Positions 1-13,167 of a stretch of DNA of 13,167 nucleotides are shown in pieces; positions within the stretch are counted from its first letter, which is position 1, and each line of letters starts with the position of its first letter. A program made the position numbers and the translations under genes. Where the stretch lies: positions 1 to 13,167 of the IMG/VR virus record IMGVR_UViG_3300021387_000118, one strand, 5' to 3'. This DNA comes from a virus. The notes beneath the pieces were generated by a model. That model did no database searches. It was given only the letters and a program-made list of their open reading frames with translations, and was not told the DNA's origin.

Positions 1-191
1 AAGTGCAAAAATCATTAGAAGTACAACTTGCTATGGAAGAGTTATCAAATCACATAAAAGAACAACAACTAAAAACATGCCACGAAATATTGCAAACAAA
101 AAATAGTCCGCTAACTTATTTAAGAAAACCCAGGTTCAGGTTTGGAAAGAAGAAAGATTATGATAGAGTTGCCGAAGTAAAGGAGATATAA
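1..191 (+). CDS. 3' end of a gene that starts upstream of the window; hypothetical protein (C-terminal 62 aa visible)
   Basis: The open frame runs off the 5' edge in frame 3 and stops with TAA at 189-191. There is no start context inside the window other than a possible internal ATG at 37. Confidence 0.45.
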   Translation, partial: VQKSLEVQLAMEELSNHIKEQQLKTCHEILQTKNSPLTYLRKPRFRFGKKKDYDRVAEVKEI

Positions 192-218
192 ATAGAGTTT
201 TTGGTTGGAGGAAAACCT

Positions 219-431
219 ATGACCGAGAAAAAATTATATACTTGTGATATTTGCAAAACCGATTATGCCAGTAAAGAAAAAGCTATTCAATGTGAAAAGA
301 ATCATAAGCTGTTAGAAACCGCGACAATAGTTGGAGTTTATAAATCTATGAACTCCATCAAAGAGGGTGTTCCCACAAAAATAAGAGTTAAATTTAAAGG
401 CATGGATGAGTTCATAGAATATGGGAGGTAA
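219..431 (+). CDS. small hypothetical protein (70 aa) with Cys-rich N-terminus (CDIC...C..C), possible zinc ribbon
   Basis: GGAGG at 207-211 lies 7 nt before ATG 219. The stop TAA at 429-431 overlaps the RBS of the next gene. Confidence 0.6.
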   Translation: MTEKKLYTCDICKTDYASKEKAIQCEKNHKLLETATIVGVYKSMNSIKEGVPTKIRVKFKGMDEFIEYGR

Positions 432-433
432 AG

Positions 434-661
434 ATGAATAATTATAATACAGCAACCACAGAAGAAATATCTCTTGCATTAAGAAAAGTTAAAGAACTTG
501 CCACAATGAGTCTTGTTTGGTCAAGACCTGTTTGTAAGCAGTGTGAATTTTATGATTTTAATGAGATGTCGGACGAATCATATTGTATAGCTAAAGATTA
601 TGAACCAATTCATCTTTATAGAAAGCATCGTCCTGATTGGTGTCCGAGATTGAACAAATAA
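434..661 (+). CDS. small hypothetical Cys-containing protein (75 aa; CKQC...C...C)
   Basis: GGGAGG at 423-428 lies 5 nt before ATG 434. Matches the ORF track. Confidence 0.65.
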   Translation: MNNYNTATTEEISLALRKVKELATMSLVWSRPVCKQCEFYDFNEMSDESYCIAKDYEPIHLYRKHRPDWCPRLNK

Positions 662-769
662 AATAAGTTTGTGAACGGAGATATAATTGCTCCTGTTGGA
701 TGGTTTGGACTTTGCGGGATGAAAAAACCGTGATGAAAACAGGAGTATGTATTACAGCTAGGAGACAGA

Positions 770-967
770 ATGAAACATACAAAACAAGAATATATTGATT
801 TCTTTACCCATATGGAACAAGAAGAAATTCACAATGGGCCTCTGGATGGACAGGCTTGGGACGAAGTTGATTGGTGGATCTATTATGCAGTAGATGTAGA
901 CAAGACACTCACAGAGGATGAACTAAAGGGCATGTTTCCGAACTTGTTCAGATGGGAGGACGAATGA
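770..967 (+). CDS. hypothetical acidic small protein (65 aa)
   Basis: AGGAGA at 760-765 precedes ATG 770. The stop overlaps the next start in an ATGA arrangement at 964-967. Confidence 0.6.
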   Translation: MKHTKQEYIDFFTHMEQEEIHNGPLDGQAWDEVDWWIYYAVDVDKTLTEDELKGMFPNLFRWEDE

Positions 968-1491
968 AAGTTATAACTGCACCGGAGTATTATGAGCCAC
1001 ATGATAAAGATATTTCAGTGTTTCTGGCTGGTGGTATTACGAATTGTCCTGATTGGCAGTCACGGGTAATTAAAACTATAAAAGATGACTATAGTGTAAT
1101 TAGTGATTCACTTGTATTATTTAATCCACGTCGTGAAAATTTTCCAATTCATGATAAACTCGCGGCAATACAGCAAATATTATGGGAGTTTGATATGATT
1201 GAAAAGTGCAATATTTTTTCAATTTATTTTTCATCTGGGGATAGTGATCAGCCGATTTGTATGTATGAACTTGGACGCAATATTTTGAGAATGCAGATGA
1301 GATTCCCATCTGATTGGGAAGACAGAATTATTATCAGTGTCGAAGATGGCTATAGACGCAAACAGGATGTGTTAATTCAGACCGAATTGGCAACAAATAG
1401 TAAGATTTTTGTTAATACACAAGTTTCTAAAGACATAGGTATGGAGTATCACATTCAAAATATAATGAGAGCGTTTAAGAAATTCAGATAG
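964..1491 (+). CDS. nucleoside 2-deoxyribosyltransferase-like protein (PF05014/DUF4406-like Rossmann fold)
   Basis: N-terminal VFLAGGIT resembles the NDT IYFGAGWF motif. DSDQPICMYELGRN resembles the NDT catalytic-Glu motif (G.GMELGYA). GGAGG at 955-959 precedes ATG 964. The alternative start is ATG 952. Confidence 0.55.
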   Translation: MKVITAPEYYEPHDKDISVFLAGGITNCPDWQSRVIKTIKDDYSVISDSLVLFNPRRENFPIHDKLAAIQQILWEFDMIEKCNIFSIYFSSGDSDQPICMYELGRNILRMQMRFPSDWEDRIIISVEDGYRRKQDVLIQTELATNSKIFVNTQVSKDIGMEYHIQNIMRAFKKFR

Positions 1492-1527
1492 TGGATTATT
1501 AATGAGTTTTTGATAGGAGAGAATAAA

Positions 1528-1761
1528 ATGGATTTTTCGCTAGGTGGAATACCAATTTATAACGCAAGAAATATAGAGTGGAAATCAAATGGCGATGGTA
1601 CTGGGCAGCTCTGGTTTAATACTGTGGTTGCAGATAAAAACGGCAAAGAGCAAGATGTAAGATTTCATATATTCAGATTAAAGTTTGATGACCCGTTAAT
1701 ATCTATTGAATCAGTTGATAATAAATTATACGAGATTGAAACGGTAGATCATTCATTCTAA
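1528..1761 (+). CDS. hypothetical protein (77 aa)
   Basis: The conserved junction cassette TTTTGATAGGAGAG ends 8 nt before ATG 1528. The track ORF begins at an upstream TTG in the same frame. Confidence 0.6.
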   Translation: MDFSLGGIPIYNARNIEWKSNGDGTGQLWFNTVVADKNGKEQDVRFHIFRLKFDDPLISIESVDNKLYEIETVDHSF

Positions 1762-1787
1762 TAAAAAGATAATTTAATGGTAAATAA

Positions 1788-1985
1788 ATGATAGGTAAAT
1801 GTCTAAACAACTGTGATAATAAAACCAAAGATGGATATTGCAAAACTACTGGATGTATAAACTCTCAATACCGACAATATCTAACTACGGGTATCGAAGA
1901 TGGATGGATTAAAGTTGATAAACAAACATGGAGAGAGTATCAAATGATGAAAGATCCAGACTACGGAGTTGGAAAATTTAGTTAA
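1788..1985 (+). CDS. small Cys-rich hypothetical protein (65 aa; C..NC...C...C)
   Basis: It is a track ORF with only a weak RBS, but it fits the co-directional packing. Confidence 0.4.
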   Translation: MIGKCLNNCDNKTKDGYCKTTGCINSQYRQYLTTGIEDGWIKVDKQTWREYQMMKDPDYGVGKFS

Positions 1986-2147
1986 TAAATAACTTTTTAT
2001 GCCTGAGATGGTATGCGATTGAGGAAATGAACTCATGATTTAAAAACTAATCATTTAAGCGGTGGGTTAGGATTAGCTCCGAAAGGTAACCATGTCCAAG
2101 GATGAAGCAACTACCGCATAAGAAGACTATTTAATGAGGATCATTGA

Positions 2148-2360
2148 ATGCGTTTATATGAAATCGAAGCAGATTATCGACCGAAGAATCCAAAGAAGCC
2201 CAAATATTATGTCTGGGCAGACACGACTAAAGATGCAAAATTGGTTTTTAACAATATAATCAGTTGGCTTACGATTTATAATGTCGCTCCAATGAACAAA
2301 GAAGACTCTGATAAGATATGTAATGAACCAGATAAGTATATAATCATAGGAAAAAAGTAA
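2148..2360 (+). CDS. hypothetical basic protein (70 aa)
   Basis: GAGGA at 2134-2138 lies 9 nt before ATG 2148. The stop overlaps the start of the next gene (TAATG). Confidence 0.55.
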   Translation: MRLYEIEADYRPKNPKKPKYYVWADTTKDAKLVFNNIISWLTIYNVAPMNKEDSDKICNEPDKYIIIGKK

Positions 2361-2791
2361 TGTATAAACAAATAATCATAGTTCGTAAAGACTTAAATAT
2401 GGGCCACGGCAAGATGGCTGCGCAAGTTGCACATGCTTCAATGTCGTTCTTATCATGGTTTGTAAGAGATAATGCTGACCAAGATGGTCATATTGACGCT
2501 TGGTTTGACAAGGATATCTTAGATAACTGGCTGAATGGCATTTATACTAAGGTTGTGTTACAGGCCAAGAATAAGGGTCAACTAGAGAAAGCAATTATCC
2601 TAGCTAATGAAATAGGCTTGGTGGAGGGGAAAGATTATTTTTTAATCAAAGATAACTGCCTTACAGAGCTTGAGCCGGAAGAAGTTGATGAATATGGTGT
2701 TGGTAGAACATTGACTTGTATTGGATTTAAACCGATGGATTCCGAAGTAATAGACAAGGTTGCCAAGAAGTTTCATATTTATGTAGATTAA
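2360..2791 (+). CDS. pth2: peptidyl-tRNA hydrolase, PTH2 family
   Basis: IIIVRKDLNMGHGKMAAQVAHAS matches the PTH2 signature (VVRxDLxMGKGKxAAQCxHAA). The C-terminal GRTLTCIGFKP...IDKV matches PTH2 (QTVLGIGPGP..IDKV). The TAATG overlap links it to the upstream gene. Confidence 0.85.
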   Translation: MYKQIIIVRKDLNMGHGKMAAQVAHASMSFLSWFVRDNADQDGHIDAWFDKDILDNWLNGIYTKVVLQAKNKGQLEKAIILANEIGLVEGKDYFLIKDNCLTELEPEEVDEYGVGRTLTCIGFKPMDSEVIDKVAKKFHIYVD

Positions 2792-2835
2792 CCAATAAAT
2801 AAGAGTAATACAAGTTGTATTGAAGGATTGTGAGA

Positions 2836-3018
2836 ATGAACAATAAAATAATCTTAGACAATAAAGAAATGTTTGTCGCAGTACAAGAGTATTTATCTAA
2901 AAGAAATATTGAATTACCAGAAGATGTTTCTGTTACTATGAAACTAAAGAAAAGATTGCCAGGAGATCCATTTCCAGATGATTATATTCCGTATATAGAG
3001 GTTGAATATAATGTATGA
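2836..3018 (+). CDS. hypothetical protein (60 aa)
   Basis: AAGGA at 2822-2826 precedes ATG 2836. The track ORF starts at an upstream GTG in the same frame. Confidence 0.5.
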   Translation: MNNKIILDNKEMFVAVQEYLSKRNIELPEDVSVTMKLKKRLPGDPFPDDYIPYIEVEYNV

Positions 3019-3244
3019 ATATATAAATTGTCCCGTCTGCGGAACGCGCAATGAATATACTACTTATTCTGAATTGGGGTTCGGAATAATCGAGCGACAT
3101 TATCATTGTCCTAGATGTACATATTTCGTTGAACAAGCATATAGTCCAGTATGTGTCGGAATTAGTACAGACTGTCCAGAAGAATATCTTGAAAGAGCCA
3201 AAGAGTTGAAATTGGATTTTTATCAGCCGGATGAGATACCGTGA
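3011..3244 (+). CDS. zinc-ribbon protein (CPVCG ... CPRC), 77 aa
   Basis: GAGG at 2998-3001 lies 9 nt before ATG 3011. It carries two CxxC pairs. It overlaps the 3' end of the upstream gene by 8 nt. Confidence 0.6.
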   Translation: MYEYINCPVCGTRNEYTTYSELGFGIIERHYHCPRCTYFVEQAYSPVCVGISTDCPEEYLERAKELKLDFYQPDEIP

Positions 3245-3312
3245 AAGTATGTTGGGTGTAAATCCTAACTCACAGAAAATATTGGGAATGTATGGATTGA
3301 AAGAAGTGTTTT

Positions 3313-3564
3313 ATGAGTAAGAGAAGAAAAGGCCGATCAATTGACCATCATTGGCAATTTGTAAAATATAAAGGTGACGGAGCGTTCTATGCTAAATGCA
3401 GTTGCGGATTTCATTATGGATGTGATAAGCCAAAATACGAAAATTCTAGTATCCCAACAGTCCCATCACCTGAGAAGTTATATAACTACTGCCCACATTG
3501 TGGAGCGAGAAAAACAAGATATTATGATGAACCAATATATATTGATAAGTATTGGTTTGAGTAA
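3313..3564 (+). CDS. zinc-finger-like protein (CSCG ... CPHCG), 83 aa, basic N-terminus
   Basis: It is a track ORF with a weak SD. The overlapping frame at 3374..3568 is less gene-like. Confidence 0.5.
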   Translation: MSKRRKGRSIDHHWQFVKYKGDGAFYAKCSCGFHYGCDKPKYENSSIPTVPSPEKLYNYCPHCGARKTRYYDEPIYIDKYWFE

Positions 3565-3576
3565 ATGAGGATTGAT

Positions 3577-3774
3577 ATGAGTGTTGAAGGATTTTTGCTT
3601 AAAAGAAGAAGGTTTAGAACTACTCACAACATGTATCAACTAACTTGCGACGATGAACATTTTGATTTGGATATGGCGGTTAGCTTATTGGAAAATATTG
3701 GGAAAGTGGCAGAAGATGGTAAAGAGATGTGGACAATAGTTCCACCAGGATATAAATGGAGTGTTGTAAAATGA
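3577..3774 (+). CDS. hypothetical protein (65 aa; 69 aa if started at ATG 3565)
   Basis: GAGGA at 3567-3571 lies 5 nt before ATG 3577. The in-frame ATG 3565 abuts the upstream stop and is the alternative start. Confidence 0.5.
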   Translation: MSVEGFLLKRRRFRTTHNMYQLTCDDEHFDLDMAVSLLENIGKVAEDGKEMWTIVPPGYKWSVVK

Positions 3775-4145
3775 CAAGAGTAATAATTGCGGGGAGCAGA
3801 CAGTTTAATGATTATCATAAGATGTTAACAGAATTGGACAACCTTGGAATTCATTTTATCAATACCATAGATCCAATAGAGATTGTTAGTGGTCATGCTT
3901 CTGGTGCTGATGCTCTTGGCGAAAGATTTGCTAAAGAATATAATTATCCGCTCAAGACATTCCCCGCCGAATGGAATAAATACGGGAAAGCTGCCGGACC
4001 AATCCGCAATGAACAGATGGCTAAATATGCAGCAGAGGCTGATCGAGGGATTTTGATTGCGTTCCCAATTGGAGAGAGTAGGGGAACTAACAATATGATT
4101 AAACTAGCAAAACAGTATGGCCTAGAAGTAAACGTGGTGTATTGA
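3771..4145 (+). CDS. SLOG-superfamily (DprA/LOG-like; DUF2493-like) Rossmann protein
   Basis: VIIAGSRQF is a Rossmann beta1 strand. GHASGADALGERFA matches the GxARGxDxxA motif. AGPIRNEQM matches the GPxRNxxM motif. ATGA overlaps the upstream stop. The alternative start is ATG 3756 with AGGA at 3747-3750. Confidence 0.55.
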   Translation: MTRVIIAGSRQFNDYHKMLTELDNLGIHFINTIDPIEIVSGHASGADALGERFAKEYNYPLKTFPAEWNKYGKAAGPIRNEQMAKYAAEADRGILIAFPIGESRGTNNMIKLAKQYGLEVNVVY

Positions 4146-4166
4146 TTAAATACTTTTATACTACTA

Positions 4167-4195
4167 TTGACAACAAGTAGATAAAAAAGTATAAT
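4167..4195 (+). promoter_or_regulatory. perfect sigma-A/sigma-70 consensus promoter TTGACA-N17-TATAAT
   Basis: TTGACA sits at 4167-4172, the spacer is exactly 17 nt, and TATAAT sits at 4190-4195. It lies in the 79-nt gap before the gene at 4225. Confidence 0.75.
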
Positions 4196-4224
4196 CAATA
4201 TAAATTATTAAAAGGAGAAAACCA

Positions 4225-4584
4225 ATGGCTGGATTAGAAGAACTTAAAACTGTTTACAAAATGATTAAGAATTATTATGGATATAAATGTACAGATGTAA
4301 TTTTCCGCAAAGATGAAGATGACGAATTCTGTGAGTTAGTTTTTGAGTATCAGGGGTTCCCAGTAAAGACAATATTCTCTTATGGGTTTTGCACTAATGT
4401 GATATACCCTAATAATGATGAAGTAACTATCATTGGCAATGATGAAAAGAATGGGGCAGTTCTTTCGACCACGGTTTATTTCGCTATCTGCGATTTTATT
4501 AAGACTATTAATAAGAATAGATTCGATAATGAAGCTATAAATGCATTCATTGATTATCTGTGGGATGATGTTATAAATGTATAA
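4225..4584 (+). CDS. hypothetical protein (119 aa)
   Basis: AAAGGAG lies about 7 nt before ATG 4225. It is the first gene downstream of the consensus promoter. Confidence 0.65.
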   Translation: MAGLEELKTVYKMIKNYYGYKCTDVIFRKDEDDEFCELVFEYQGFPVKTIFSYGFCTNVIYPNNDEVTIIGNDEKNGAVLSTTVYFAICDFIKTINKNRFDNEAINAFIDYLWDDVINV

Positions 4585-4604
4585 TTAAATGAAGAGGAAT
4601 GAAT

Positions 4605-5099
4605 ATGCTATCTCAATCCAACATTGATAAACTTCATGTAAATGGTATTTATAAATGCGAACCCGTATTGAGTTGGTTACCATTCTATAAACGAGATAAT
4701 CCTTACTGGTGTCGCAACTGGACGTTTAAGGTTAAAGAATATAAAGGTCACTATGCTATGTATGATACTTACTGGTCAACAGGTGACGATTATCCAATAG
4801 AACTTACAGATGAGAATTTTGATAAATTTGAATATCTGTTTGATTTGGATGATATTCGGTATATACATGATTATGAAAGCTGGCTTGAATATCCAGAAGA
4901 AGATAGATGGAGAGTGCCACTAGATTCTGGCGGCACCAATCATGCAAAATATGTTGTTCGGCGTGGAGCCAAGAGGGTTAAGGAACGAGTTATCGAGAGA
5001 ATGCAGCGTGATATTGATTGCTTAAAGCATGAGTTATCTCAGAAAGGGCGGATCCTCGAAGGGATTATCAATGGTAGTATTGATTGGAATATATGCTGA
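4605..5099 (+). CDS. hypothetical protein (164 aa), Trp/Tyr-rich
   Basis: GAGG at 4594-4597 lies 7 nt before ATG 4605. ATG 4599 is too close to the SD. Confidence 0.6.
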   Translation: MLSQSNIDKLHVNGIYKCEPVLSWLPFYKRDNPYWCRNWTFKVKEYKGHYAMYDTYWSTGDDYPIELTDENFDKFEYLFDLDDIRYIHDYESWLEYPEEDRWRVPLDSGGTNHAKYVVRRGAKRVKERVIERMQRDIDCLKHELSQKGRILEGIINGSIDWNIC

Positions 5100-5162
5100 T
5101 GGAGAGTGTGATGTGGGATCCAGAAACTGATGCTTGCGATTATTGAAAGGAGAGGACAACTC

Positions 5163-5324
5163 ATGGATCAAGCACATATGATAAAAGACCTTGAAATTGC
5201 AAAATGCATACTGAGTAATTTAAACACCCCACTTGATGGGATGATGAGAGTCTGTATTGGGCAAATTATATCGGAAGCAATTGACGCATTAAAAATAGAG
5301 GAGAAACATAATGAGGATAATTAA
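5163..5324 (+). CDS. small hypothetical protein (53 aa)
   Basis: AAAGGAGAGG at 5146-5155 lies 7 nt before ATG 5163. The track ORF from 5130 lacks an RBS. Confidence 0.5.
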   Translation: MDQAHMIKDLEIAKCILSNLNTPLDGMMRVCIGQIISEAIDALKIEEKHNEDN

Positions 5325-5712
5325 TCGAAATGAATTAGCAAAGATGCCAAATGGCACGGTGTTCTCATCATTTGATGGTTATAGTGTTGACGGATTTGAA
5401 ATTATAACAGGCAGCCATGGTGATGGATTTAATGGTACGCTTGATCTGGAACCAAGTTTTAATTGGGATAGTGATCATGCGGAACGTATTACTAACTGGT
5501 CAACTGTAGATACCGCCGATTATGATTTTGATGAGGATGCCAAGTTCGTTGTTTATAGTAAGAATGAAATACGTGAAATAATTCAGTGGCTAAAATGGGC
5601 CATTGACGAAGACGGACATCCTGATATGGAAAAGTATTTTTATAAAAACCAAGTAATGTCGGAGGGGGAAGCTTCAAAATATACTAATGGTCATGGCTTA
5701 TGGTGGGGATAA
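5311..5712 (+). CDS. hypothetical protein (133 aa)
   Basis: GAGGAG at 5298-5303 lies 7 nt before ATG 5311. Confidence 0.65.
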   Translation: MRIINRNELAKMPNGTVFSSFDGYSVDGFEIITGSHGDGFNGTLDLEPSFNWDSDHAERITNWSTVDTADYDFDEDAKFVVYSKNEIREIIQWLKWAIDEDGHPDMEKYFYKNQVMSEGEASKYTNGHGLWWG

Positions 5713-5724
5713 AACAAGATTTCA

Positions 5725-5904
5725 ATGCCTAATTATGTAAGATGCATTCAGTTAGAACCTGGATTAAAATTATATTATAGTAATAAAGAACAATGTTTAA
5801 GAACATCGGAAGAATTAACAAATGCCGGATTTAAGAATCGTGTTGCATATAATTATGACGGTGATTTTTGGAGTATATATGTATTAGATGAAACAAGTCT
5901 TTGA
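5725..5904 (+). CDS. small hypothetical protein (59 aa), below the ORF-track cutoff
   Basis: It fills an otherwise empty gap. It ends ...DETSL with its stop inside the conserved junction cassette (AAGTCTTTGATAGGAG). The SD is weak. Confidence 0.4.
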   Translation: MPNYVRCIQLEPGLKLYYSNKEQCLRTSEELTNAGFKNRVAYNYDGDFWSIYVLDETSL

Positions 5905-5919
5905 TAGGAGAAAAAATAT

Positions 5920-6120
5920 ATGTACGATCCTGAAGAAATAAATAAAAATCCTTGGTGGTGGATAAGAAATAGAGGAAAAATTAATGATGCTCTTGAAGTA
6001 ATAGATCTTGCTTTAGAAGAATATGATGAGGGACGCGGGTTGGCATTTTCTGATATTCCAGATAAATTTAAAGATATCAAAAATTTCTTTAATGATGTTT
6101 GCTATCCTGATTGGAAGTGA
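5920..6120 (+). CDS. hypothetical Trp-rich protein (66 aa)
   Basis: The junction cassette TTTGATAGGAGAAAAAATAT precedes ATG 5920. Confidence 0.6.
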   Translation: MYDPEEINKNPWWWIRNRGKINDALEVIDLALEEYDEGRGLAFSDIPDKFKDIKNFFNDVCYPDWK

Positions 6121-6144
6121 AAATTAGATTTTATTGGAGAATTT

Positions 6145-6429
6145 ATGAAGAAGATTGATGAAGGAAATATGAGTGGACTTCGTGATTGGTGTGCTATGCA
6201 TGGTATAATATACGTGCAATGGTATCCATATGATAATTGTTCTGGTTATTACATAGAGAATCCATCAGAGGATGCATTGGAAAAATTCTATGAAAATGTT
6301 AATGCGTCTGATCCATATCATAGATCTTTTGTTTTAATATTGGGGAAGACTGAAACTCATAATAATTTGAACATGAGAACTATTGATGAATATATACAAC
6401 ATGGTATATTACCTTTTCTATTTTGTTGA
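6145..6429 (+). CDS. hypothetical protein (94 aa) carrying an LRDWC motif
   Basis: The cassette TTTTATTGGAGAATTT precedes ATG 6145. It contains a 17-nt exact repeat shared with the gene at 7415. Confidence 0.6.
   Translation: MKKIDEGNMSGLRDWCAMHGIIYVQWYPYDNCSGYYIENPSEDALEKFYENVNASDPYHRSFVLILGKTETHNNLNMRTIDEYIQHGILPFLFC
6177..6193 (+). repeat. 17-nt exact repeat ACTTCGTGATTGGTGTG (copy 1, inside the gene at 6145)
   Basis: The identical 17-mer recurs at 7558-7574 inside the gene at 7415. Both copies encode LRDWC. Confidence 0.8.
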
Positions 6430-6455
6430 AAAACTGAATTTGATTGGAGAAAAAT

Positions 6456-6791
6456 ATGAGTTATAACGAGAACGGTATTTGTAAATTCGCAATAGAACGA
6501 GAAGACGGTCATGGTGAGCAGCAACGTCATCCGTTACAGCTGGTGGCAAGAATAGATGTTGATGACCTGGTAAAGCTATTCGATGAAGCCCCGACAAATT
6601 TTGATGGCGAGAACCCCATTTGTAAAGTAAAAGATCCAATTAAATTTACGAAGTTTGTCATCAGGAGATTATGGGACGATGCACCATATGAAGCTGATGA
6701 TGTTGTTTGGGCACAGCCGTTGACTTATATCTTTGAACAATTACTAGAAGATTATAGGCCGGAGTTTCTGGAGTATTTTGATGAGGTATGA
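6456..6791 (+). CDS. hypothetical acidic protein (111 aa)
   Basis: The cassette TTTGATTGGAGAAAAAT precedes ATG 6456. The track ORF starts at an upstream TTG in the same frame. Confidence 0.6.
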   Translation: MSYNENGICKFAIEREDGHGEQQRHPLQLVARIDVDDLVKLFDEAPTNFDGENPICKVKDPIKFTKFVIRRLWDDAPYEADDVVWAQPLTYIFEQLLEDYRPEFLEYFDEV

Positions 6792-6821
6792 AATTGAGGT
6801 TTTATCGGAAAAGAGGTAAAA

Positions 6822-6989
6822 ATGTTTAAATTTGAAAAAATAGCCGAAATAAGGACTGTTAGCGGGAAAGTGACAAAAGAGGTTGTTGAAGCCCTCATAG
6901 ATAAAGGGTTTTATTTATGCCTTGACGGAAATTATGCAATGGATGGATGCGATTTTATTGTAATGAAAAAAGCATCTGATGAAAACTAA
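6822..6989 (+). CDS. small hypothetical protein (55 aa), below the ORF-track cutoff
   Basis: AAGAGG at 6811-6816 lies 5 nt before ATG 6822. It fills a 190-nt gap in the same orientation. Confidence 0.5.
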   Translation: MFKFEKIAEIRTVSGKVTKEVVEALIDKGFYLCLDGNYAMDGCDFIVMKKASDEN

Positions 6990-7017
6990 GTTTTATTGGA
7001 ATTTTGAAGTGATATTT

Positions 7018-7197
7018 ATGAAGAAAATACTAATAGTTAAAAATGGCAATACCCCAATGGGAATATTCGAGACAGAAAGAGTTGAAGAACACTGGAGTTG
7101 GGGAAAGCATTGGTTTGACTTTCAATTGAAAGATGGAAGTAGATCAGTAGATTATCAGATGCCTTTATGCCACTACTATATTTTGAAAAAGAAATAA
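7018..7197 (+). CDS. small hypothetical protein (59 aa)
   Basis: A cassette variant AAGTTTTATTGGAATTTTGAAGTGA precedes ATG 7018. The in-frame ATG 6979 is the alternative start, but it lies inside the upstream small ORF. Confidence 0.45.
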   Translation: MKKILIVKNGNTPMGIFETERVEEHWSWGKHWFDFQLKDGSRSVDYQMPLCHYYILKKK

Positions 7198-7214
7198 GTT
7201 TTATGGGAAGTAAT

Positions 7215-7394
7215 ATGGATATATATAAACTAATAGATTACTACATTGACAAATATTTAGAAGAAAAGGAACATCAAACAGATGGTTATACTCGTGCTGG
7301 GATGTTACAGGGATTATTATGGATTTGTCGCTTTGGTGGCGTAACAGATGAGAACCTTGGTGATGATAGATTAATAAAGATATCTAGCAAATGA
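7215..7394 (+). CDS. small hypothetical protein (59 aa)
   Basis: The cassette variant AAGTTTTATGGGAAG ends 5 nt before ATG 7215. The alternative start is ATG 7203. Confidence 0.5.
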   Translation: MDIYKLIDYYIDKYLEEKEHQTDGYTRAGMLQGLLWICRFGGVTDENLGDDRLIKISSK

Positions 7395-7414
7395 AATAAA
7401 CGCTTGGAGGCACT

Positions 7415-7594
7415 ATGACAAATTTTGAAAAATATATAAATAGCTTAACACAGGATAAGTTCATAGATTCGATGATACTAAACTGCGATGGTTGTCCAGC
7501 GTATCCATGTAATGATGAAAATATTACAGAAGACAATGGGCTTGATTGCGAAGAAAAACTTCGTGATTGGTGTGAAACTGAAAGAAGTCTTTGA
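7415..7594 (+). CDS. small Cys-rich protein (59 aa; CDGCPAYPC ... LRDWC), below the track cutoff
   Basis: GGAGG at 7406-7410 lies 4 nt before ATG 7415. Its stop sits inside the junction cassette. It shares the 17-nt repeat with the gene at 6145. It is preferred over the overlapping ORFs at 7384..7698 (-) and 7488..7796 (+). Confidence 0.55.
   Translation: MTNFEKYINSLTQDKFIDSMILNCDGCPAYPCNDENITEDNGLDCEEKLRDWCETERSL
7558..7574 (+). repeat. 17-nt exact repeat ACTTCGTGATTGGTGTG (copy 2, inside the gene at 7415)
   Basis: See copy 1. Confidence 0.8.
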
Positions 7595-7606
7595 TGAGGA
7601 AAAAAT

Positions 7607-7888
7607 ATGTATAGAGAGATGCCACCAGATGCAATGCAACCACATGATACTTGGATTATTGCCTTTTGCCCAGATACAGATTCGTTCTTTGTCACCAATC
7701 AGAGGGCATTCTACTGGGAATCCGAAGAAGAATTTGAATCAGAAGAAGCTGGAATATATTTCTTTGAGCATCAGATTCAATACTTCATTGATGTAGAAGA
7801 AAAATTAATGAGCGACATGTTTATTAATGATTGGAATACTGATCGTGTTTTTCTGGAGAACACAAATAGACGATATCTTAAAAGCTAA
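7607..7888 (+). CDS. hypothetical acidic protein (93 aa)
   Basis: The cassette AAGTCTTTGATGAGGAAAAAATAT precedes ATG 7607. Confidence 0.6.
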   Translation: MYREMPPDAMQPHDTWIIAFCPDTDSFFVTNQRAFYWESEEEFESEEAGIYFFEHQIQYFIDVEEKLMSDMFINDWNTDRVFLENTNRRYLKS

Positions 7889-7906
7889 GTTTAATTGGAG
7901 AATGTA

Positions 7907-8230
7907 ATGGTAGCAAGATGTGGGAATACTGGTGTTACTGTTGGCAGCGAATGGTGTGGATTATGCCGAGTGCATGGATGCGAAGGATATAAATTATTTA
8001 AACAATCATGTAAGAATGGCGAACAATTTAATGAAGGAGAAGCTATGGTAGAAATTAATGATGTGAATCTTAACAAAGAACTTATGTGTGAGATTAGAAT
8101 TCCTATAGGAGTTAATAGAGAGACAATTACAAATCCTTTTAAGATACTTGGATTTGATGTAAGACAAATTGGCAGCCTTTCTAATGGTGATATTATTTAT
8201 GAGGTGGTTGATAAACCTAAGGTGAGATAA
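7907..8230 (+). CDS. Cys-rich (C..C..C...C) hypothetical protein (107 aa)
   Basis: The cassette AAGTTTAATTGGAGAATGTA precedes ATG 7907. The track ORF starts at an upstream TTG in the same frame. Confidence 0.6.
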   Translation: MVARCGNTGVTVGSEWCGLCRVHGCEGYKLFKQSCKNGEQFNEGEAMVEINDVNLNKELMCEIRIPIGVNRETITNPFKILGFDVRQIGSLSNGDIIYEVVDKPKVR

Positions 8231-8252
8231 TTATGAATGGGAGATATTAGAT

Positions 8253-8606
8253 ATGAAGAGCTGTCCAAATTGTGGCGCACCATTTGAACCTTATAAATGC
8301 AAGTGTGAATTTTGCGGCACATGGTACTTTGATTTCACTGCATTTGATATGAGTGAGAATGTACCATACTATGTAAAGTTTAGAACGCCATATGGAATAA
8401 TTACTACATTGGCTAGACCGGAATTACAGACAATTGAAGTAAATGACGATTATTATTATGCCTGTAATTCAAGGGGTAATAAAATTGCTAAAATTGTTGG
8501 GAACAGAAGCTGTGATCTTAATGTAACATTTCATTCACAGATTGATCCAGAAACTGAAACGTTGTATCAGTTGGAAGTATCTAATGAAAATGGAATAGAA
8601 AAATGA
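8253..8606 (+). CDS. zinc-ribbon protein (CPNCG ... CKCEFCG N-terminus), 117 aa
   Basis: GGGAGA at 8239-8244 lies 8 nt before ATG 8253. It has an N-terminal Cys4-type ribbon. Confidence 0.65.
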   Translation: MKSCPNCGAPFEPYKCKCEFCGTWYFDFTAFDMSENVPYYVKFRTPYGIITTLARPELQTIEVNDDYYYACNSRGNKIAKIVGNRSCDLNVTFHSQIDPETETLYQLEVSNENGIEK

Positions 8607-8656
8607 TTTAATGAGTAAAAAAGAATGAATGAGGAGTAATCCTGAAGGAAATAATT

Positions 8657-8923
8657 ATGAGATATTTTAAATGTGCAGCGATTAGATACAAGACAGGTGA
8701 AGACATCTGGACAGAAAGACGAGGCAAAAGACATCATGAAATTATTAAAGCAATTCATGATGCTGGAGAAACAGAGCAGTATAAGAAATGTCATGTGGAT
8801 GGATTTATAATCGGAGAAAGTTGGACCGCAGAATTTGTAGACCGAGAAACTGCTACAGAAATCGCCAAAGAAATGGGGATTAAAATGCGAGGTTGTGTTC
8901 TAACATCTGAAGATTTGTGGTAA
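8657..8923 (+). CDS. hypothetical protein (88 aa)
   Basis: GAAGGA at 8643-8648 lies 8 nt before ATG 8657. Confidence 0.6.
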   Translation: MRYFKCAAIRYKTGEDIWTERRGKRHHEIIKAIHDAGETEQYKKCHVDGFIIGESWTAEFVDRETATEIAKEMGIKMRGCVLTSEDLW

Positions 8924-8946
8924 TAAGTTAATAAGAGGAGTCCATA

Positions 8947-9123
8947 ATGATGGAACGATGTGAATATTGTGAGTATCGTAATGGCTGGGAATGTAGTGAT
9001 GGATACTATAGAGTTTCTAATGATAAGATGTGCGAGAGGTTTAAGTTAGATTTCGACACGCTAAGTGATGGTGTTAAACGTCAGATCCAGAAGCGATTGA
9101 TTGGCGAGTTGGAATGGATTTAA
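8947..9123 (+). CDS. small zinc-binding-like protein (58 aa; CEYCEY ... C ... C), below the track cutoff
   Basis: AGAGGAG at 8934-8940 lies 6 nt before ATG 8947. It fills a gap and ends with TAA at 9121-9123. Confidence 0.5.
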   Translation: MMERCEYCEYRNGWECSDGYYRVSNDKMCERFKLDFDTLSDGVKRQIQKRLIGELEWI

Positions 9124-9127
9124 GAAA

Positions 9128-9436
9128 ATGATGAATTGTGATAATTGCAGATATTATGAATGGTATTATGATTATTGTAGTAAATGGAAATGCAAAGTAG
9201 ATTCGAGAGAGGTTCATGATTGTTTTAAACCCCGTGAAAATAATATGGTTAATAAAATATTAAGAAAAGACTTTAGCAATCCGAATAAGTTGGTTGCTGG
9301 ATATGAAGTAGTAGATGAAGAGCCGGAAGAAATAACTTTTAAGTATTCAGATTTCGAAGTATTCCACAGTGGAAACGCTGCAATCTGGTCTCCGTTGGTT
9401 TGGCAACTAAGATATAATTATGGATTGTATAAATGA
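9128..9436 (+). CDS. Cys-rich hypothetical protein (102 aa; CDNC ... C..C.C)
   Basis: ATG 9128 is 4 nt after the upstream stop, suggesting translational coupling. The SD is weak. The track ORF starts at an upstream TTG in the same frame. Confidence 0.5.
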   Translation: MMNCDNCRYYEWYYDYCSKWKCKVDSREVHDCFKPRENNMVNKILRKDFSNPNKLVAGYEVVDEEPEEITFKYSDFEVFHSGNAAIWSPLVWQLRYNYGLYK

Positions 9437-9446
9437 GGAAATAACA

Positions 9447-9755
9447 ATGTTATTAGATATTATAACTTCGACAAAGATTGGCATTTTTTATTTAGATAAA
9501 GGTTGGAAAGACGATGTTTATGAGAAAATTAGAGCCGATGCTTTAAAGTGTGAGACTCTTAAGTATTTCAATAAAAATGAAATATGCTTTGCTGACAAGC
9601 ATATAAAGATATGTATTTATTTTTATCCGGTAGATAATAATGTTAGAGGATGCAGATTTGATCGAGTTTATTATCAGCAGGGCATAGATAGAGATGTTTT
9701 ATTAAGTCGAGCTGCACCAAAGATATTAACAAGGATGTATCCGCTAGATGTTTAA
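9447..9755 (+). CDS. hypothetical protein (102 aa)
   Basis: GAGGAA at 9433-9438 lies 8 nt before ATG 9447. Confidence 0.55.
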   Translation: MLLDIITSTKIGIFYLDKGWKDDVYEKIRADALKCETLKYFNKNEICFADKHIKICIYFYPVDNNVRGCRFDRVYYQQGIDRDVLLSRAAPKILTRMYPLDV

Positions 9756-9768
9756 TAGGAGGAAAATA

Positions 9769-9966
9769 ATGAAGAAAAAAGAACATATGAGAATTATGAA
9801 TAAGGCAACTATTAAGGTATTCTTTAAAGATGGTAACGTTGATGAGATCCCGTCCAGGATCTGGGATGACTATCAGTATATTGATAGGCTGTTTGTTGTT
9901 AAGAGACGTGGAGTTTGGATTGGAATTTACAACATGGATGGAGTAGATTGTATTACCATCGGATAA
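9769..9966 (+). CDS. small basic hypothetical protein (65 aa)
   Basis: AGGAGG at 9756-9761 lies 7 nt before ATG 9769. Confidence 0.6.
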   Translation: MKKKEHMRIMNKATIKVFFKDGNVDEIPSRIWDDYQYIDRLFVVKRRGVWIGIYNMDGVDCITIG

Positions 9967-9984
9967 GAAGAATGGAGTATTGTA

Positions 9985-10644
9985 ATGAGTAATTATGTAA
10001 TTCACGCTTGCCCTAAGAGATTGTGGTATGTAGAAGAATTTCTCGTACCATCACTCAAAGAACAGGGCATAGAGAATATTGACGTAAGATGTGACAACTT
10101 TAAGCGTGGTAATCTTTTGTATTGTATGGATATCTTTGGAAGAATGACCGGAGATGGTGGCAGTTGGCACATACAGGACGATGTGGTTATTTGCCGAGAT
10201 TTCGCTCAACGTACTGCTAAGTATGATGGCAAGAATGAAATAGTGTGTGGCTTTGCTTGGGATAAAGATCCTAACATAGACAAAATCGACCATGTGCAGC
10301 AATCTGATATGTGGTACTCATTTCCTTGTATATATATCCCTAACTACATTGCCAAGGAATGTTCTGAATGGTTTTTCAATAAAGGACGATATGATGGAAG
10401 ATATTTATCATTTAGCGTTAAAGGCCAGTTCGATGATTATTTCTTCCAGAAGTATCTGATGGAGTATTATCCAGAACTTCCCGTTCTACATATTAAGCCG
10501 AGTCTTGTTGATCATATTGATTACCTAATTGGTGGAACAACAGTGGAAGCTATTGGCAGAGACGAGGTTAGTAGAGCAAAGTGGTTTGATGATCCTGATC
10601 TTGTTAATCAATTAAAGGAGAGGTTAAAATACAGAAATGGCTAA
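9985..10644 (+). CDS. first copy of a tandem paralog pair: GT-A-fold/DxD-like putative glycosyltransferase (219 aa)
   Basis: GGAG at 9974-9977 lies 7 nt before ATG 9985. DGGSWHIQDDVVI resembles the GT-A (h)GG(v)Y(l)DxDhh motif. The C-terminal LVDHIDYLIGG has an H-x-D pair. It is clearly paralogous to the ORF at 10637..11302. Confidence 0.6.
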   Translation: MSNYVIHACPKRLWYVEEFLVPSLKEQGIENIDVRCDNFKRGNLLYCMDIFGRMTGDGGSWHIQDDVVICRDFAQRTAKYDGKNEIVCGFAWDKDPNIDKIDHVQQSDMWYSFPCIYIPNYIAKECSEWFFNKGRYDGRYLSFSVKGQFDDYFFQKYLMEYYPELPVLHIKPSLVDHIDYLIGGTTVEAIGRDEVSRAKWFDDPDLVNQLKERLKYRNG

Positions 10645-11302
10645 TTATTTAATTCATGCTTGTCCAGAACGAATGTGGTATGTGGATAATTATCTGGTGC
10701 CATCACTTCGTAATCAGGGTATTAATAATATTATTGTCAGTTGTGATCAGTTACATTTGGGGAATCTAGAAAGTTGTATGAAGATTTTCGGTTCTCTGGA
10801 AGACGATGGTTATGGTACATGGCATCTGCAAGATGATGTGATTATATGCCGGAACTTTCGGGAAATTACCGAGAGATATGATTATGGTGTTGTTTGCGGT
10901 TTCACTCATTCACGATCTGCTAACACTGGATTTGTTTTACCGGATAAGATGTGGTACTCATTTCCATGTATTAGAATATCTAACGGGATAGCCAAAGAAT
11001 GTTCACAGTGGTACTATTCGTTCGCTAAGAAATATGCTAAATATTATGAATGGGTTCATATGGGGAAATGTGATGATAATTTCTTCTATGAATTCATGAA
11101 TAAGTATTGTTCTACATTAGATGTATTAAATCTAGTTCCTAATTTGGTTGATCATATTGATTACCTTCTGGGAGGATCAATGGTTAACCAATACAGGAAT
11201 GGCGAACAATTTAGATCAGCTTACTTTGAGGATGTTGATCTTGTAGATCAATTAGCTAATGATATAAGGAGAAATAATAATGGTACGAATGCTTCATTAT
11301 GA
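10637..11302 (+). CDS. second copy of the tandem paralog pair: GT-A-fold/DxD-like putative glycosyltransferase (221 aa)
   Basis: It shares with the upstream ORF the blocks YxIHACPxRxWYV..LVPSL, WHxQDDVxICRxF, MWYSFPCI, IAKECSxW and LVDHIDYLxGG. It overlaps the upstream stop by 8 nt. AAGGAGAGG lies upstream. Confidence 0.6.
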   Translation: MANYLIHACPERMWYVDNYLVPSLRNQGINNIIVSCDQLHLGNLESCMKIFGSLEDDGYGTWHLQDDVIICRNFREITERYDYGVVCGFTHSRSANTGFVLPDKMWYSFPCIRISNGIAKECSQWYYSFAKKYAKYYEWVHMGKCDDNFFYEFMNKYCSTLDVLNLVPNLVDHIDYLLGGSMVNQYRNGEQFRSAYFEDVDLVDQLANDIRRNNNGTNASL

Positions 11303-11591
11303 TGATCGTAAAGAAGAACGTCAATCGCATGAGATCTATTTTCAACTGTCTGGCGATGATGATTTTAAAAACTTCTTTGGGGCTGAAGGTGATGGTCATG
11401 TGACTGAATTGAGTTTGGCAAGTCTACGTGCATATGGGGCAACTAAGGAAGAAGCTCTCAAGAACATGGAACCTATCATGGAATGGTTAGCTGCCGAAAT
11501 CCAGGCAATCTACCTTCTCTATCAAGATGGATTTTATGATAAAAATGTTATTGACGTTGATGCTGCTGGTATACCTATAGGAGAAGAATGA
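11280..11591 (+). CDS. HicB/UPF0150-like domain protein (103 aa)
   Basis: AGGAG at 11266-11270 lies 9 nt before ATG 11280. ELSLASLRAYGATKEEALKNMEPIMEWL resembles the UPF0150/HicB N-domain motif (PxLPG..a.G.T.EEAL.N..EAi..wl). Confidence 0.4.
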   Translation: MVRMLHYDDRKEERQSHEIYFQLSGDDDFKNFFGAEGDGHVTELSLASLRAYGATKEEALKNMEPIMEWLAAEIQAIYLLYQDGFYDKNVIDVDAAGIPIGEE

Positions 11592-11914
11592 TGAAATATC
11601 GTATTAAAGAAATCCTTCATAGCGGCAGAAAAGATACTAGGAATAAGCCAGTTGACTCACCTAAGTTTGATGGCATGATTGGTTCTATTATCGAACTCAA
11701 GTATATAGAAGATCCCAATATGAATATAACTGAGATTGATAATATAGAAGATATTAAACAGTTTAGTTTAGTTGGATGGGATTTTTTATCTGGAGATGCT
11801 CCGTATGAGTATTGGGAAACTACTGCCGTTATAGCGATTTATCTGGATTATAATGATGTGTATCACATCGAAACTGCTAATACTATTTATAAACTGGAAA
11901 AAATCGAAGACTAA
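11588..11914 (+). CDS. hypothetical protein (108 aa)
   Basis: AGGAGAAG precedes the ATGATG at 11588/11591. ATGA overlaps the upstream stop. Confidence 0.55.
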   Translation: MMKYRIKEILHSGRKDTRNKPVDSPKFDGMIGSIIELKYIEDPNMNITEIDNIEDIKQFSLVGWDFLSGDAPYEYWETTAVIAIYLDYNDVYHIETANTIYKLEKIED

Positions 11915-11943
11915 TTTATTGAAAATATATAAAATGTGTCAGA

Positions 11944-11972
11944 TTGTCATTCTAGTATGTGAGTAGTATAAT
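11944..11972 (+). promoter_or_regulatory. near-consensus sigma-A promoter TTGTCA-N17-TATAAT
   Basis: TTGTCA sits at 11944-11949, the spacer is 17 nt, and TATAAT sits at 11967-11972. It lies in the 98-nt gap upstream of the HPr-like gene. Confidence 0.7.
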
Positions 11973-11980
11973 TAATTTCG

Positions 11981-11998
11981 TTAATAATTAATTATTAA
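11981..11998. promoter_or_regulatory. perfect 18-bp palindrome TTAATAATTAATTATTAA directly downstream of the -10; candidate operator
   Basis: The 18 bases are exactly self-complementary. They sit between the TATAAT box and the RBS of the gene at 12013. Confidence 0.4.
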
Positions 11999-12012
11999 AC
12001 AAGAGGTAACAT

Positions 12013-12255
12013 ATGAGAATTCTATTGGACTTGGATCTGGAAAAAATCAACGATCTATGCAAGATTTGCGACACATCATCATTAGATGTTAATGTTGTTT
12101 CTGGCAGTTTGATTGTTGACGGTTGTTCAGTGATGGGTGTCATGGGGTTGTGCGATAGAGTTGTTGAATTAAAACCTGTAACAACAGATCCCATGGAAAT
12201 TGCAGCATTTTTTGAAAGAGTAAAGCCGTTAGGCGCATATTTCAGTAAGGAGTAA
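12013..12255 (+). CDS. HPr/Crh-like phosphocarrier-fold protein lacking the His15 active site
   Basis: DVNVVSGSLIVDGCSVMGVMGLCDRVVEL aligns to the HPr segment [32 protein letters not shown], so the Ser46 region is conserved. The N-terminal LDLEKINDL has no equivalent of the GIHARPA His15 loop. AGAGG lies 6 nt before ATG 12013. Confidence 0.5.
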   Translation: MRILLDLDLEKINDLCKICDTSSLDVNVVSGSLIVDGCSVMGVMGLCDRVVELKPVTTDPMEIAAFFERVKPLGAYFSKE

Positions 12256-12260
12256 AAATT

Positions 12261-12686
12261 ATGAAGAGAAAGAGTATTCAGAACAAAAATTTTAAGATTA
12301 TCCCCGAAGCAAAGCTTGTACAGGGCGAAATGCCGGAAAAGCTTATTGCGTATGATTTGACTGCTGGAATTAAGAGTAAGTATAAGGATCTTATTTTAGC
12401 GGCATCATTTGAATATGAAGATGACTGGTTCCCGTGTGACAATGTAATTACCGCTAATGCTTACTGCGATGAAAAGGATGAGTGGGATGAGAAGGTTGGC
12501 ACCGATGTTTGTGCTGCCAAGTTGGAACTGAAGAATCACCAGAAGCTCGCTAAGAAGTACGATAGAATTGCTAGAGATCTTCAGGAAGCCTGTCTGATCG
12601 CCCAGAGTTATTGCATTCGACATGAAGCAAAGGCTATGTCTATTGAGGATGATCTGATACAGTATCACGGAAGGTTGCCGATGTGA
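12261..12686 (+). CDS. hypothetical protein (141 aa)
   Basis: AAGGAG at 12244-12249 lies upstream of ATG 12261. Matches the ORF track. Confidence 0.6.
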   Translation: MKRKSIQNKNFKIIPEAKLVQGEMPEKLIAYDLTAGIKSKYKDLILAASFEYEDDWFPCDNVITANAYCDEKDEWDEKVGTDVCAAKLELKNHQKLAKKYDRIARDLQEACLIAQSYCIRHEAKAMSIEDDLIQYHGRLPM

Positions 12687-12697
12687 GGAGGAACTAA

Positions 12698-13167
12698 ATG
12701 GAGTTTGTAAATGAAATCATTAACAATATCTGGAAAGACAGATATAGAAAGAATAATGAAACACTTGAGGGTAATTTTAGAAGAGTTGCGAAGTTTTGTG
12801 CGAAAGATAAAAATGATGAAAATGACTTTTTTAATGTTATGGACAGAGGTCTTTTTTATCCGGCTGGAAGAACTATGAGTAATTCTGGTGTTGGTACAAA
12901 ACTAACTCTTAATAATTGCTTTACGGCTCCCCAAATTGGAGATAGCTACGATGAAATATTTGACAGAGTAAGACTTGGGGCAGTTACTCATCAGCGCGGT
13001 GGAGGTATTGGATATGATTTCTCGCAGCTTCGTCCTAAAGGATCTCCTACTTCTAATAACGCAGTTGCTTCTGGACCAGTGAGTTTTATGGATGTTTTTA
13101 ATGCACAGACAGAGACTACAATCCAGGGGCAACGCCGTGGAGCAAATATGGGTATTATGAATGTATA
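12698..13167 (+). CDS. nrdJ: ribonucleotide reductase catalytic subunit, N-terminal part (runs off the window); most consistent with class II adenosylcobalamin-dependent NrdJ
   Basis: GAGGAGG at 12685-12691 lies 6 nt before ATG 12698. LNNCF, RGGGIGYDFSQLRPKGS, ASGPVSFMDVF and QRRGANMG match the RNR active-site and N-terminal signatures (compare Thermotoga NrdJ: LSACFV, GGGTGFSFSRLRPKG, ASGPVSFMRVFD, KRRGANM). It is absent from the ORF track because there is no stop in the window. Confidence 0.8.
   Translation, partial: MEFVNEIINNIWKDRYRKNNETLEGNFRRVAKFCAKDKNDENDFFNVMDRGLFYPAGRTMSNSGVGTKLTLNNCFTAPQIGDSYDEIFDRVRLGAVTHQRGGGIGYDFSQLRPKGSPTSNNAVASGPVSFMDVFNAQTETTIQGQRRGANMGIMNV

Follow-up and report, generated by a model that had tools for sequence, protein, structure and literature searches.

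The DNA analysed here (the window) is a stretch of 13,167 nucleotides (nt), positions 1 to 13,167 of IMG/VR virus record IMGVR_UViG_3300021387_000118. Its flagged region, 5889–7610, comprises consecutive small accessory genes of a large uncultivated phage and had been singled out for two short repeats shared between nonadjacent genes, namely an exact 17-mer, ACTTCGTGATTGGTGTG, and a less perfect repeat of about 26 nt. The original prediction took both as signs of cassette shuffling by recent recombination. Part of a ~142-kb metagenomic contig matches the window exactly, as does sequence on another contig that was assembled independently, and no variant joints were seen. Because the two independent assemblies agree exactly, the repeats are not an assembly artefact. 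All window genes lie on the + strand. Four of them, named here by their first nucleotide, carry the repeats or adjoin them. Gene 5725 (5725–5904) encodes 59 amino acids (aa) and was not called in the source annotation, although homologues 84–88% identical are present in the related contigs L135 and L153. Gene 6145 (6145–6429, 94 aa) is a long-form member of its family, whose short forms start no more than one codon from the internal methionine M18 of gene 6145. Gene 7415 (7415–7594, 59 aa) is Cys-rich and belongs to a family in which L49, W52, and C53 are nearly invariant. Gene 7607 (7607–7888, 93 aa) accompanies the last 45–60 nt of gene 7415 in contigs L008, L009, and L010. PHROG and Pfam searches of ten small-gene proteins returned no family for any of them, and a megablast search of 5300–8300 against 50,697 phage records, made for a close cultured relative, gave no match.

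The 26-nt repeat shared by the 3′ ends of genes 5725 and 7415 is real: positions 5889–5915 and 7579–7605 are 81% identical over 27 nt without gaps, around an exact 11-mer core, AAGTCTTTGAT. It had been regarded as a private link between the two genes, and this view does not hold. The same cassette is found at no fewer than 12 gene junctions of the window and, in relatives, between other gene pairs. The consensus, ~25–30 nt in length, consists of TGAAA(A)yTrA, GTTT(T/G)AT(T/A)GGAG, an A-rich spacer, and ATG. Twelve junctions can be aligned, all on the + strand, and nine of these are consecutive between 5889 and 7906. The first 26-nt copy is the cassette at 5889–5919, which encloses the stop codon of gene 5725, and the second is the cassette at 7579–7606; these two form the AAGTCTTTGAT subtype. 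The cassette at 6118–6144, TGAAAATTAGATTTTATTGGAGAATTT, precedes gene 6145 and in L087 follows a different upstream gene. Further copies precede gene 6456 (6427–6455), gene 6822 (6789–6821), gene 7018 (6980–7017, with a central TAA that is the stop codon of gene 6822), gene 7215 (7190–7214), and gene 7907 (7880–7906). A weaker copy lies before gene 7415 (7385–7414), and in L088 the same junction precedes the 6145 homologue. Three copies are outside the flagged region, at 196–218, 1500–1527, and 9745–9768. As a side observation, gene 7018 may start at an in-frame GTG at 7009, 7 nt after the GGAA of its cassette.

Within the aligned cores, the pair at 5889 and 7579 is 73% identical, and a closer pair is formed by 1500–1527 and 5889–5919 (85%), which have the exact 12-mer TTTGATAGGAGA in common. 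Allowing up to three mismatches, AAGTTTTATTGGAG matched the window 12 times against 3.0 expected, and none of 200 shuffles reached 12. Among 13 close relatives, 69 occurrences of the cassette core were on the coding strand and 13 on the opposite one, with an ATG following shortly after in most cases. The stop codon of the upstream gene occupies one of three cassette positions, being the first TGA, a central TAA or TAG, or a late TGA; since it sits at three different places, the cassette is conserved at the level of nucleic acid rather than protein. The ETSL tail of gene 5725 and the ERSL tail of gene 7415 are simply translations of the cassette, and, as had been noted, no other similarity was found between the two proteins. 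Such E-T/R-S-L tails are forced, because the upstream frame enters a cassette of the AAGTCTTTGAT subtype before it stops. In relatives this subtype, there AAGTCTTTRAT, is found between other gene pairs, and the tails read ETSL, KTSL, ERSL, or RKSF.

The GGAG of the cassette stands 5–9 nt before the ATG, and we infer that the cassette is the stop-plus-ribosome-site signal of each small gene. Other kinds of signal were considered. The best sigma-70 promoter candidate in the junctions had 9 of 12 matches, the window held 68 promoter-like sites against 62.5 in shuffles, and no terminator-like site was present at any window junction; a promoter or terminator role of the junctions was rejected on these grounds. 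Predicted RNA folds of the junctions ranged from -0.8 to -5.9 kcal/mol (z scores of -1.0 to +1.0 relative to shuffles), z scores over all predicted folds spanned -1.2 to +1.0, and neither the cassette nor the 17-mer matched Rfam. A stable RNA structure or known RNA family at the junctions or the 17-mer was likewise rejected.

The genes around these junctions have been shuffled. Homologues of the small genes are present in every related contig, in differing orders and combinations: 6145 follows 7215 in L088 and stands ahead of 5311 in L006, 7607 stands ahead of 7415 in L003, and a short 6145 directly follows 5725 in L153. We collected the internal ends of alignments of at least 80% identity between the window and its non-redundant relatives, not all of which are independent events. 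Of these 55 homology end-points, 43 fell between -32 and +5 relative to a gene start, positions that together account for 11.8% of the window (binomial 1e-29). Homologous modules on the two sides of a junction overlap in the cassette core, as seen for 6118–6451 and 6433–6801 (overlap 6438–6451) and for 7558–7910 and 7878–8233 (overlap 7878–7910). Overlap of this kind is the trace expected of cross-overs within a shared patch.

Tail and cassette can also travel together. The 7415 tail plus cassette stays on gene 7415 while the downstream gene differs (L145 and L153), and it stays on gene 7607 while the upstream gene differs (L008, L009, and L010). In L008 (5904–5999) and the same region of L009, only the last 45 nt of gene 7415 are left, as noncoding sequence upstream of the 7607 homologue. 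L010 retains a 60-nt noncoding remnant of the 7415 3′ end in the same setting (5925–5999), and in all three contigs the rest of 7415 has been replaced by other genes. The 7018 homologue of L090 ends in the tail of gene 5725, VLDKTSL. Two proteins are chimeric or fused: P0045 starts with the N-terminus of the 50-aa product of a neighbouring gene ('MTNLEK') and finishes with the 7415 C-terminus, and in P0003 a Cys-rich upstream gene is fused across the junction to a 6145 homologue. Separately, L093 contains a frameshifted 7415 (668–850). The proposal that these small genes behave as shuffled cassettes is thus supported by the altered gene orders and by the chimeric proteins.

Whether the cassette takes part in the shuffling is a separate matter. 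The same 12–25 nt core recurs between unrelated genes and thereby offers recombination a patch of homology, and recombination may well use the repetition of the cassette in this way. Alternatively, the cassette could be a translation signal and nothing else, kept alike by selection for one optimal stop-plus-ribosome-site, with recombinants that break genes being lost and recombination having no use for it. This explanation agrees with the GGAG or GAGG found 4–13 nt 5′ of nearly all start codons of the window, even at junctions that lack the extended motif, and with junctions that have no special RNA structure or promoter. Some break-points also lie within genes (7535, 7558, and 6547). Three further points weigh against the roles proposed for the cassette. 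The cassette is common only in this clade, distant relatives having 0.2 per kb, mostly inside genes. The clustering of break-points is no proof that recombination uses the cassette, because purifying selection alone leaves break-points at gene boundaries, and the 55 end-points, as said, are not independent events. What a translation signal explains less well is the extent of the conservation, which continues for 15–20 nt 5′ of the Shine-Dalgarno site, takes in the upstream stop codon, and so exceeds the usual need of ribosome binding. It also leaves aside that modules on both sides of a junction include the cassette core and that one cassette subtype stands between different gene pairs in relatives. 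We therefore hold a purely translational role to be a real contender but a rather unlikely one.

The 17-mer requires a different account. It is present exactly twice in the window, at 6177–6193 and 7558–7574 on the + strand, and no third site was found in the window with up to two mismatches allowed. Each copy starts with the third base of a codon and, as originally described, encodes LRDWC. In gene 6145 these are residues 12–16, and the repeat ends 2 nt before the internal ATG of M18. In gene 7415 they are residues 49–53, the final conserved stretch before a variable tail. Recurrence by chance had been called negligible. With codons shuffled within genes 1000 times as the null, 0.033 direct repeats of at least 17 nt are expected per window, with P = 0.032 for one or more and P = 0.001 for two or more, so chance recurrence is unlikely but not negligible. 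Given an identical LRDWC peptide, the probability of identical codons is 0.026. The window holds four direct repeats of at least 17 nt, of which two lie within a pair of tandem paralogues, one is the flagged pair, and one is an orphan pair at 8014 and 11197. This second orphan, the exact 17-mer GAATGGCGAACAATTTA at 8014–8030 and 11197–11213, is likewise in frame (NGEQF) in two unrelated genes, 7907–8230 and 10637–11302. In the L088 homologue of gene 7907–8230 (73% identical), a sequence shorter by 9 nt stands in place of the GAATGGCGAACAATTTA site, and the patch looks on this account like a lineage-specific insertion or template switch.

Relatives show that the flagged 17-mer did not arise recently in this genome. 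In the 7415 family, L49, W52, and C53 are nearly invariant even among members only 54–62% identical, so the motif is under genuine protein constraint there. The DNA of six 7415 homologues retrieved by protein similarity keeps CTTCGT(G/A)ATTGGTG(T/C)G, and among the nearly invariant DNA stretches of the family the 17-mer ranks second in length, synonymous sites included. Beyond it, the tails diverge according to junction type. Long forms of 6145 carry L-[RHQY]-[DN]-W-C at residues 12–16, and the DNA of the site reads ACTTCATGATTGGTGTG in L087 and L088, GCTGCGTGATTGGTGTG in L006, ACTACGTCATTGGTGTG in L089, and ACTTCATGATTTGTGTA in L003. Because diverged relatives of each family, of only 68–77% protein identity, carry the 17-mer or a near-copy, the LRDWC motif is old in both families. 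The two copies in L003 differ at 4 of 17 positions and are therefore not in concerted evolution. Close 6145 homologues read CAT where the window has CGT, which indicates that the exact identity is specific to this lineage and lies atop a shorter shared core.

No wider relationship accompanies the motif. The gene pair 7415 plus 7607 had been suggested to be a rearranged relative of gene 6145. BLASTP detected nothing beyond LRDWC between 6145 and 7415 and no match between 6145 and 7607. Sensitive profile–profile alignment gave probabilities of 8% for 6145 and 7415, 0.1% for 6145 and 7607, and 0.1% for 7415 and 7607. Extended homology among the three was rejected, the pairwise, profile–profile, and DNA-flank comparisons all being negative. 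A tandem or segmental duplication with longer homology is contradicted by the same BLASTP result and by flanking DNA that is no more alike between the two copies than in shuffles (P = 0.23 and 0.80). The 17-mer is thus the sole similarity between these genes, and it is not absent from related genomes. Taken together, the original prediction is confirmed as to the repeats and partly supported as to their meaning, in that the genes are shuffled but the recent joints and the rearranged paralogue are not borne out.

The position of the 17-mer suggests how it may have arisen. In the 7415 family it closes the conserved body at its 3′ edge, and in the 6145 family it lies at the 5′ edge of the long form, where its right end is at most one codon from the start of the short form. 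The initiation region of short-form 6145 genes, AAGTCTTTAATTGGTGG-ATG, includes ATTGGTG in matching codon phase, and a microhomology joint between the end of 7415 and a short-form 6145 would therefore be in frame. Furthermore, the left end of copy 2 is precisely where the 7415 remnant in L008 and L009 starts. No partner sequence for this break-point was found, the gene upstream of the remnant being present only in those two contigs and the spacer matching nothing else. These features are consistent with an old scar of edge capture, in which a 7415-type gene end was joined to 6145, an origin for which we consider the balance to be about even.

Several observations weigh against such a capture. 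The flanks of the two copies are unrelated. In the 6145 family, only a 13–14-nt core of the 17-mer is securely ancient, and 14-nt repeats are expected 1.7 times per window by chance. In an hhalign comparison, the 8% match of 6145 with 7415 covers only 13 columns at the motif. Exact scans of viral and metagenome collections found the 17-mer only in the 6145 and 7415 families, in the L008/L009 remnant, and in unrelated chance contexts, the last at about the number expected for the size of the database. In some of those unrelated genes, such as a serine-recombinase-like ORF (open reading frame), it also codes for LRDWC. A fusion intermediate of 7415 and 6145 was present neither in 23 (6145) and 22 (7415) protein clusters nor in 74 exact metagenome hits, and no hybrid joint between the 17-mer copies was seen among the exact collection hits. 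On the basis of these scans, the idea of the 17-mer as a widespread mobile boundary element was rejected. A resemblance of the 17-mer to GATTGGAGGTGTGAAT-ATG, found upstream of distant 7607 homologues, was judged too weak and was not used.

A rival explanation is that the identity is coincidental. Two unrelated proteins would each need L-R-D-W-C, biased codon usage would make their DNA alike, and no recombination would have been involved. The constraint on the 7415 motif, the unrelated flanks, the CAT codon of close 6145 homologues with the high expectation for 14-nt repeats, and the recurrence of the 17-mer as LRDWC codons in unrelated genes of the public data all fit such a coincidence. It is harder to reconcile with the low probabilities of identical codons and of any repeat of 17 nt or more, and with a second in-frame orphan in the same window (P = 0.001 for two). 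Coincidence would also leave to accident that both copies stand at gene edges, copy 1 ending beside the internal ATG near the short-form start, and that an independent break-point in L008 and L009 meets the left end of copy 2. On this evidence we think coincidence possible but improbable, and the edge-capture scar remains our preferred origin of the 17-mer.

Combining these results, the best overall explanation, which we favour by a modest degree, is that a reused junction cassette and gene shuffling account for the region and that the 17-mer is an old scar of edge capture. The only consensus sigma-70 promoters in the window lie at 4167–4195 and 11944–11972, and because they bracket the flagged small genes, these genes probably form one transcription unit. 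The first promoter is a perfect consensus (TTGACA-17-TATAAT) within a 20-nt inverted repeat (4140–4159 and 4181–4200) and the second is near-consensus; the two would probably delimit the unit that holds the shuffled genes. In the model we propose, the small accessory genes would sit in one long transcription unit downstream of the promoter at 4167–4195, and each cassette would supply the stop codon of the upstream gene, a U-rich stretch, and the Shine-Dalgarno site of the next gene. The 26-nt repeat is two copies of one cassette subtype, AAGTCTTTGAT-GGAG. Related phages have the genes in other orders, and the exchange points fall in or beside the cassette. Since the exchange point is sometimes a few codons inside the upstream gene, the unit that moves would comprise the tail of the neighbour, the cassette, and the gene. 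Joints inside a neighbouring gene would make tails chimeric, and one such joint would have given the long 6145 form its LRDWC start, when a 7415-type gene end was joined in frame to a short-form 6145 initiation region through the microhomology ATTGGTG. The LRDWC codons would since have been retained by selection on both proteins.

A bolder version of this model can be formulated, in which the cassette is a dedicated recombination linker without a promoter, a stripped-down analogue of the promoter-early stem-loop (PeSL), that drives accessory-gene shuffling in this clade (contigs of ~100–215 kb) and is perhaps recognised as a hairpin with the stop codon in its loop. The 17-mer would then be the fossil of an in-frame tail capture through an ATTGG core that created new protein termini. 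We regard this version as speculative and its correctness as improbable. Less probable again is that a phage factor reads the 17-mer or the cassette as a nucleic-acid element, such as a stop-in-loop hairpin, a recombination site, or the site of an RNase or repressor. Of 102 junctions, only 28 fit the form AAA-N-loop-N-TTT; in these, the bases on either side of the loop show an association of C with G and of T with A (Fisher P = 0.017, a count uncorrected for shared ancestry), which hints weakly at a mini-hairpin with the stop codon in its loop. The near invariance of the 17-mer at synonymous sites in the 7415 family points in the same direction. Against both stand folds no more stable than shuffles, the lack of an Rfam match, and the two collection scans, in which the 17-mer occurred in no further phage gene family; we consider a recognised element of this kind very unlikely. 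Finally, that both repeats are fresh illegitimate or microhomology joints in this genome, with 7415 plus 7607 a rearranged copy of 6145, would suit the improbability of the 17-mer and the demonstrable mosaicism of the region, but it is hardly credible in view of the copies in diverged relatives of both families, the two identical assemblies without variant joints, the lack of homology of 6145 to 7607 or to the rest of 7415, and the membership of the 26-nt repeat in a family of at least 12 copies.

Some further features of the window and its relatives deserve mention. Recognisable neighbours include a nucleoside deoxyribosyltransferase-like gene, PTH2, a SLOG-family gene, and a T4_Y16D-family gene. 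A ribonucleotide reductase encoded just downstream is at most 36% identical to that of any cultured phage. Like gene 5725, the 59-aa ORF at 7018–7197 was not called in the source annotation; its homologues in related contigs are 64–69% identical, and both ORFs are probably real genes. The 7607 family is widespread. Its invariant core, TWIIAFCPD...FF.T..R, was present in 70 of the fetched loci (including L011–L073, with the match at ~6001–6273 in each), mostly on contigs of ~100–200 kb, and one contig carries two copies (L041 and L063). The tandem paralogues at 9985–10644 and 10637–11302 encode 219 and 221 aa, share 47% protein identity, overlap by 8 nt, and have no Pfam match; they are the source of the longest exact repeats (20 and 17 nt) that the window contains. 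Lastly, the source annotation reads through the TAG stop codon (1489–1491) of gene 952–1491 and merges gene 1528–1761 into a 265-aa product (L001, 4820–5617). The L003 homologue has 178 aa. TAG terminates only 1 of 40 complete genes in the window, and it may be that genes in this contig were called under a genetic code in which TAG is recoded.

Among known systems, lambdoid phages exchange modules at gene boundaries, and short conserved boundary sequences have been proposed to guide homologous recombination there. The present case concerns another phage group and other sequences, with one cassette family at nine consecutive junctions. If the cassette is both a translation signal and a cross-over patch, cassette-mediated shuffling of small genes would not be special to T4-type coliphages, and no promoter-terminator unit would be necessary, a linker of ~25 nt with a stop codon and a ribosome site being enough. 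The cassette also explains why unrelated small phage proteins have common C-terminal tails and short in-frame patches, and this calls for caution when homology or 'motifs' are inferred from such tails.

In T4-type phages, PeSLs consist of a strong sigma-70 promoter and a stable, often G/C-rich stem-loop that terminates transcription, and mini-circles are released when adjacent copies recombine (Arbiol et al. 2010, PMC2839356; Comeau et al. 2014, PMC4122927). The cassette resembles them as a repeated intergenic element concentrated among small genes of no known function (12 copies, nine of them consecutive), bounded by an upstream stop codon in A/T-rich sequence and by a downstream Shine-Dalgarno site and start codon. 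In both cases, end-points of indels or replacements between related phages lie at the cassettes (here 43 of 55 in junction zones). Unlike a PeSL, the cassette has no sigma-70 promoter and no stable stem-loop or terminator and is only ~25–30 nt long. The start-associated sequences (SAS) of Cluster K mycobacteriophages have the 13-bp consensus GGGATAGGAGCCC, and no role in recombination was proposed for them (Pope et al. 2011, PMC3203893). Like the cassette, SAS are conserved motifs in one orientation with an AGGAG core, situated a few nt before the starts of a subset of non-structural genes from different families, and the upstream stop codon sometimes falls inside the motif. The SAS consensus had 0 matches in the window at up to two mismatches, and the cassette differs in that it extends upstream over an A-run, a T-run, and the stop region. 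The cassette is best described as a variant of these known phage junction motifs and of gene-boundary mosaicism, and as it stands the region is a tidy instance of known phage mosaicism rather than a new kind of system.

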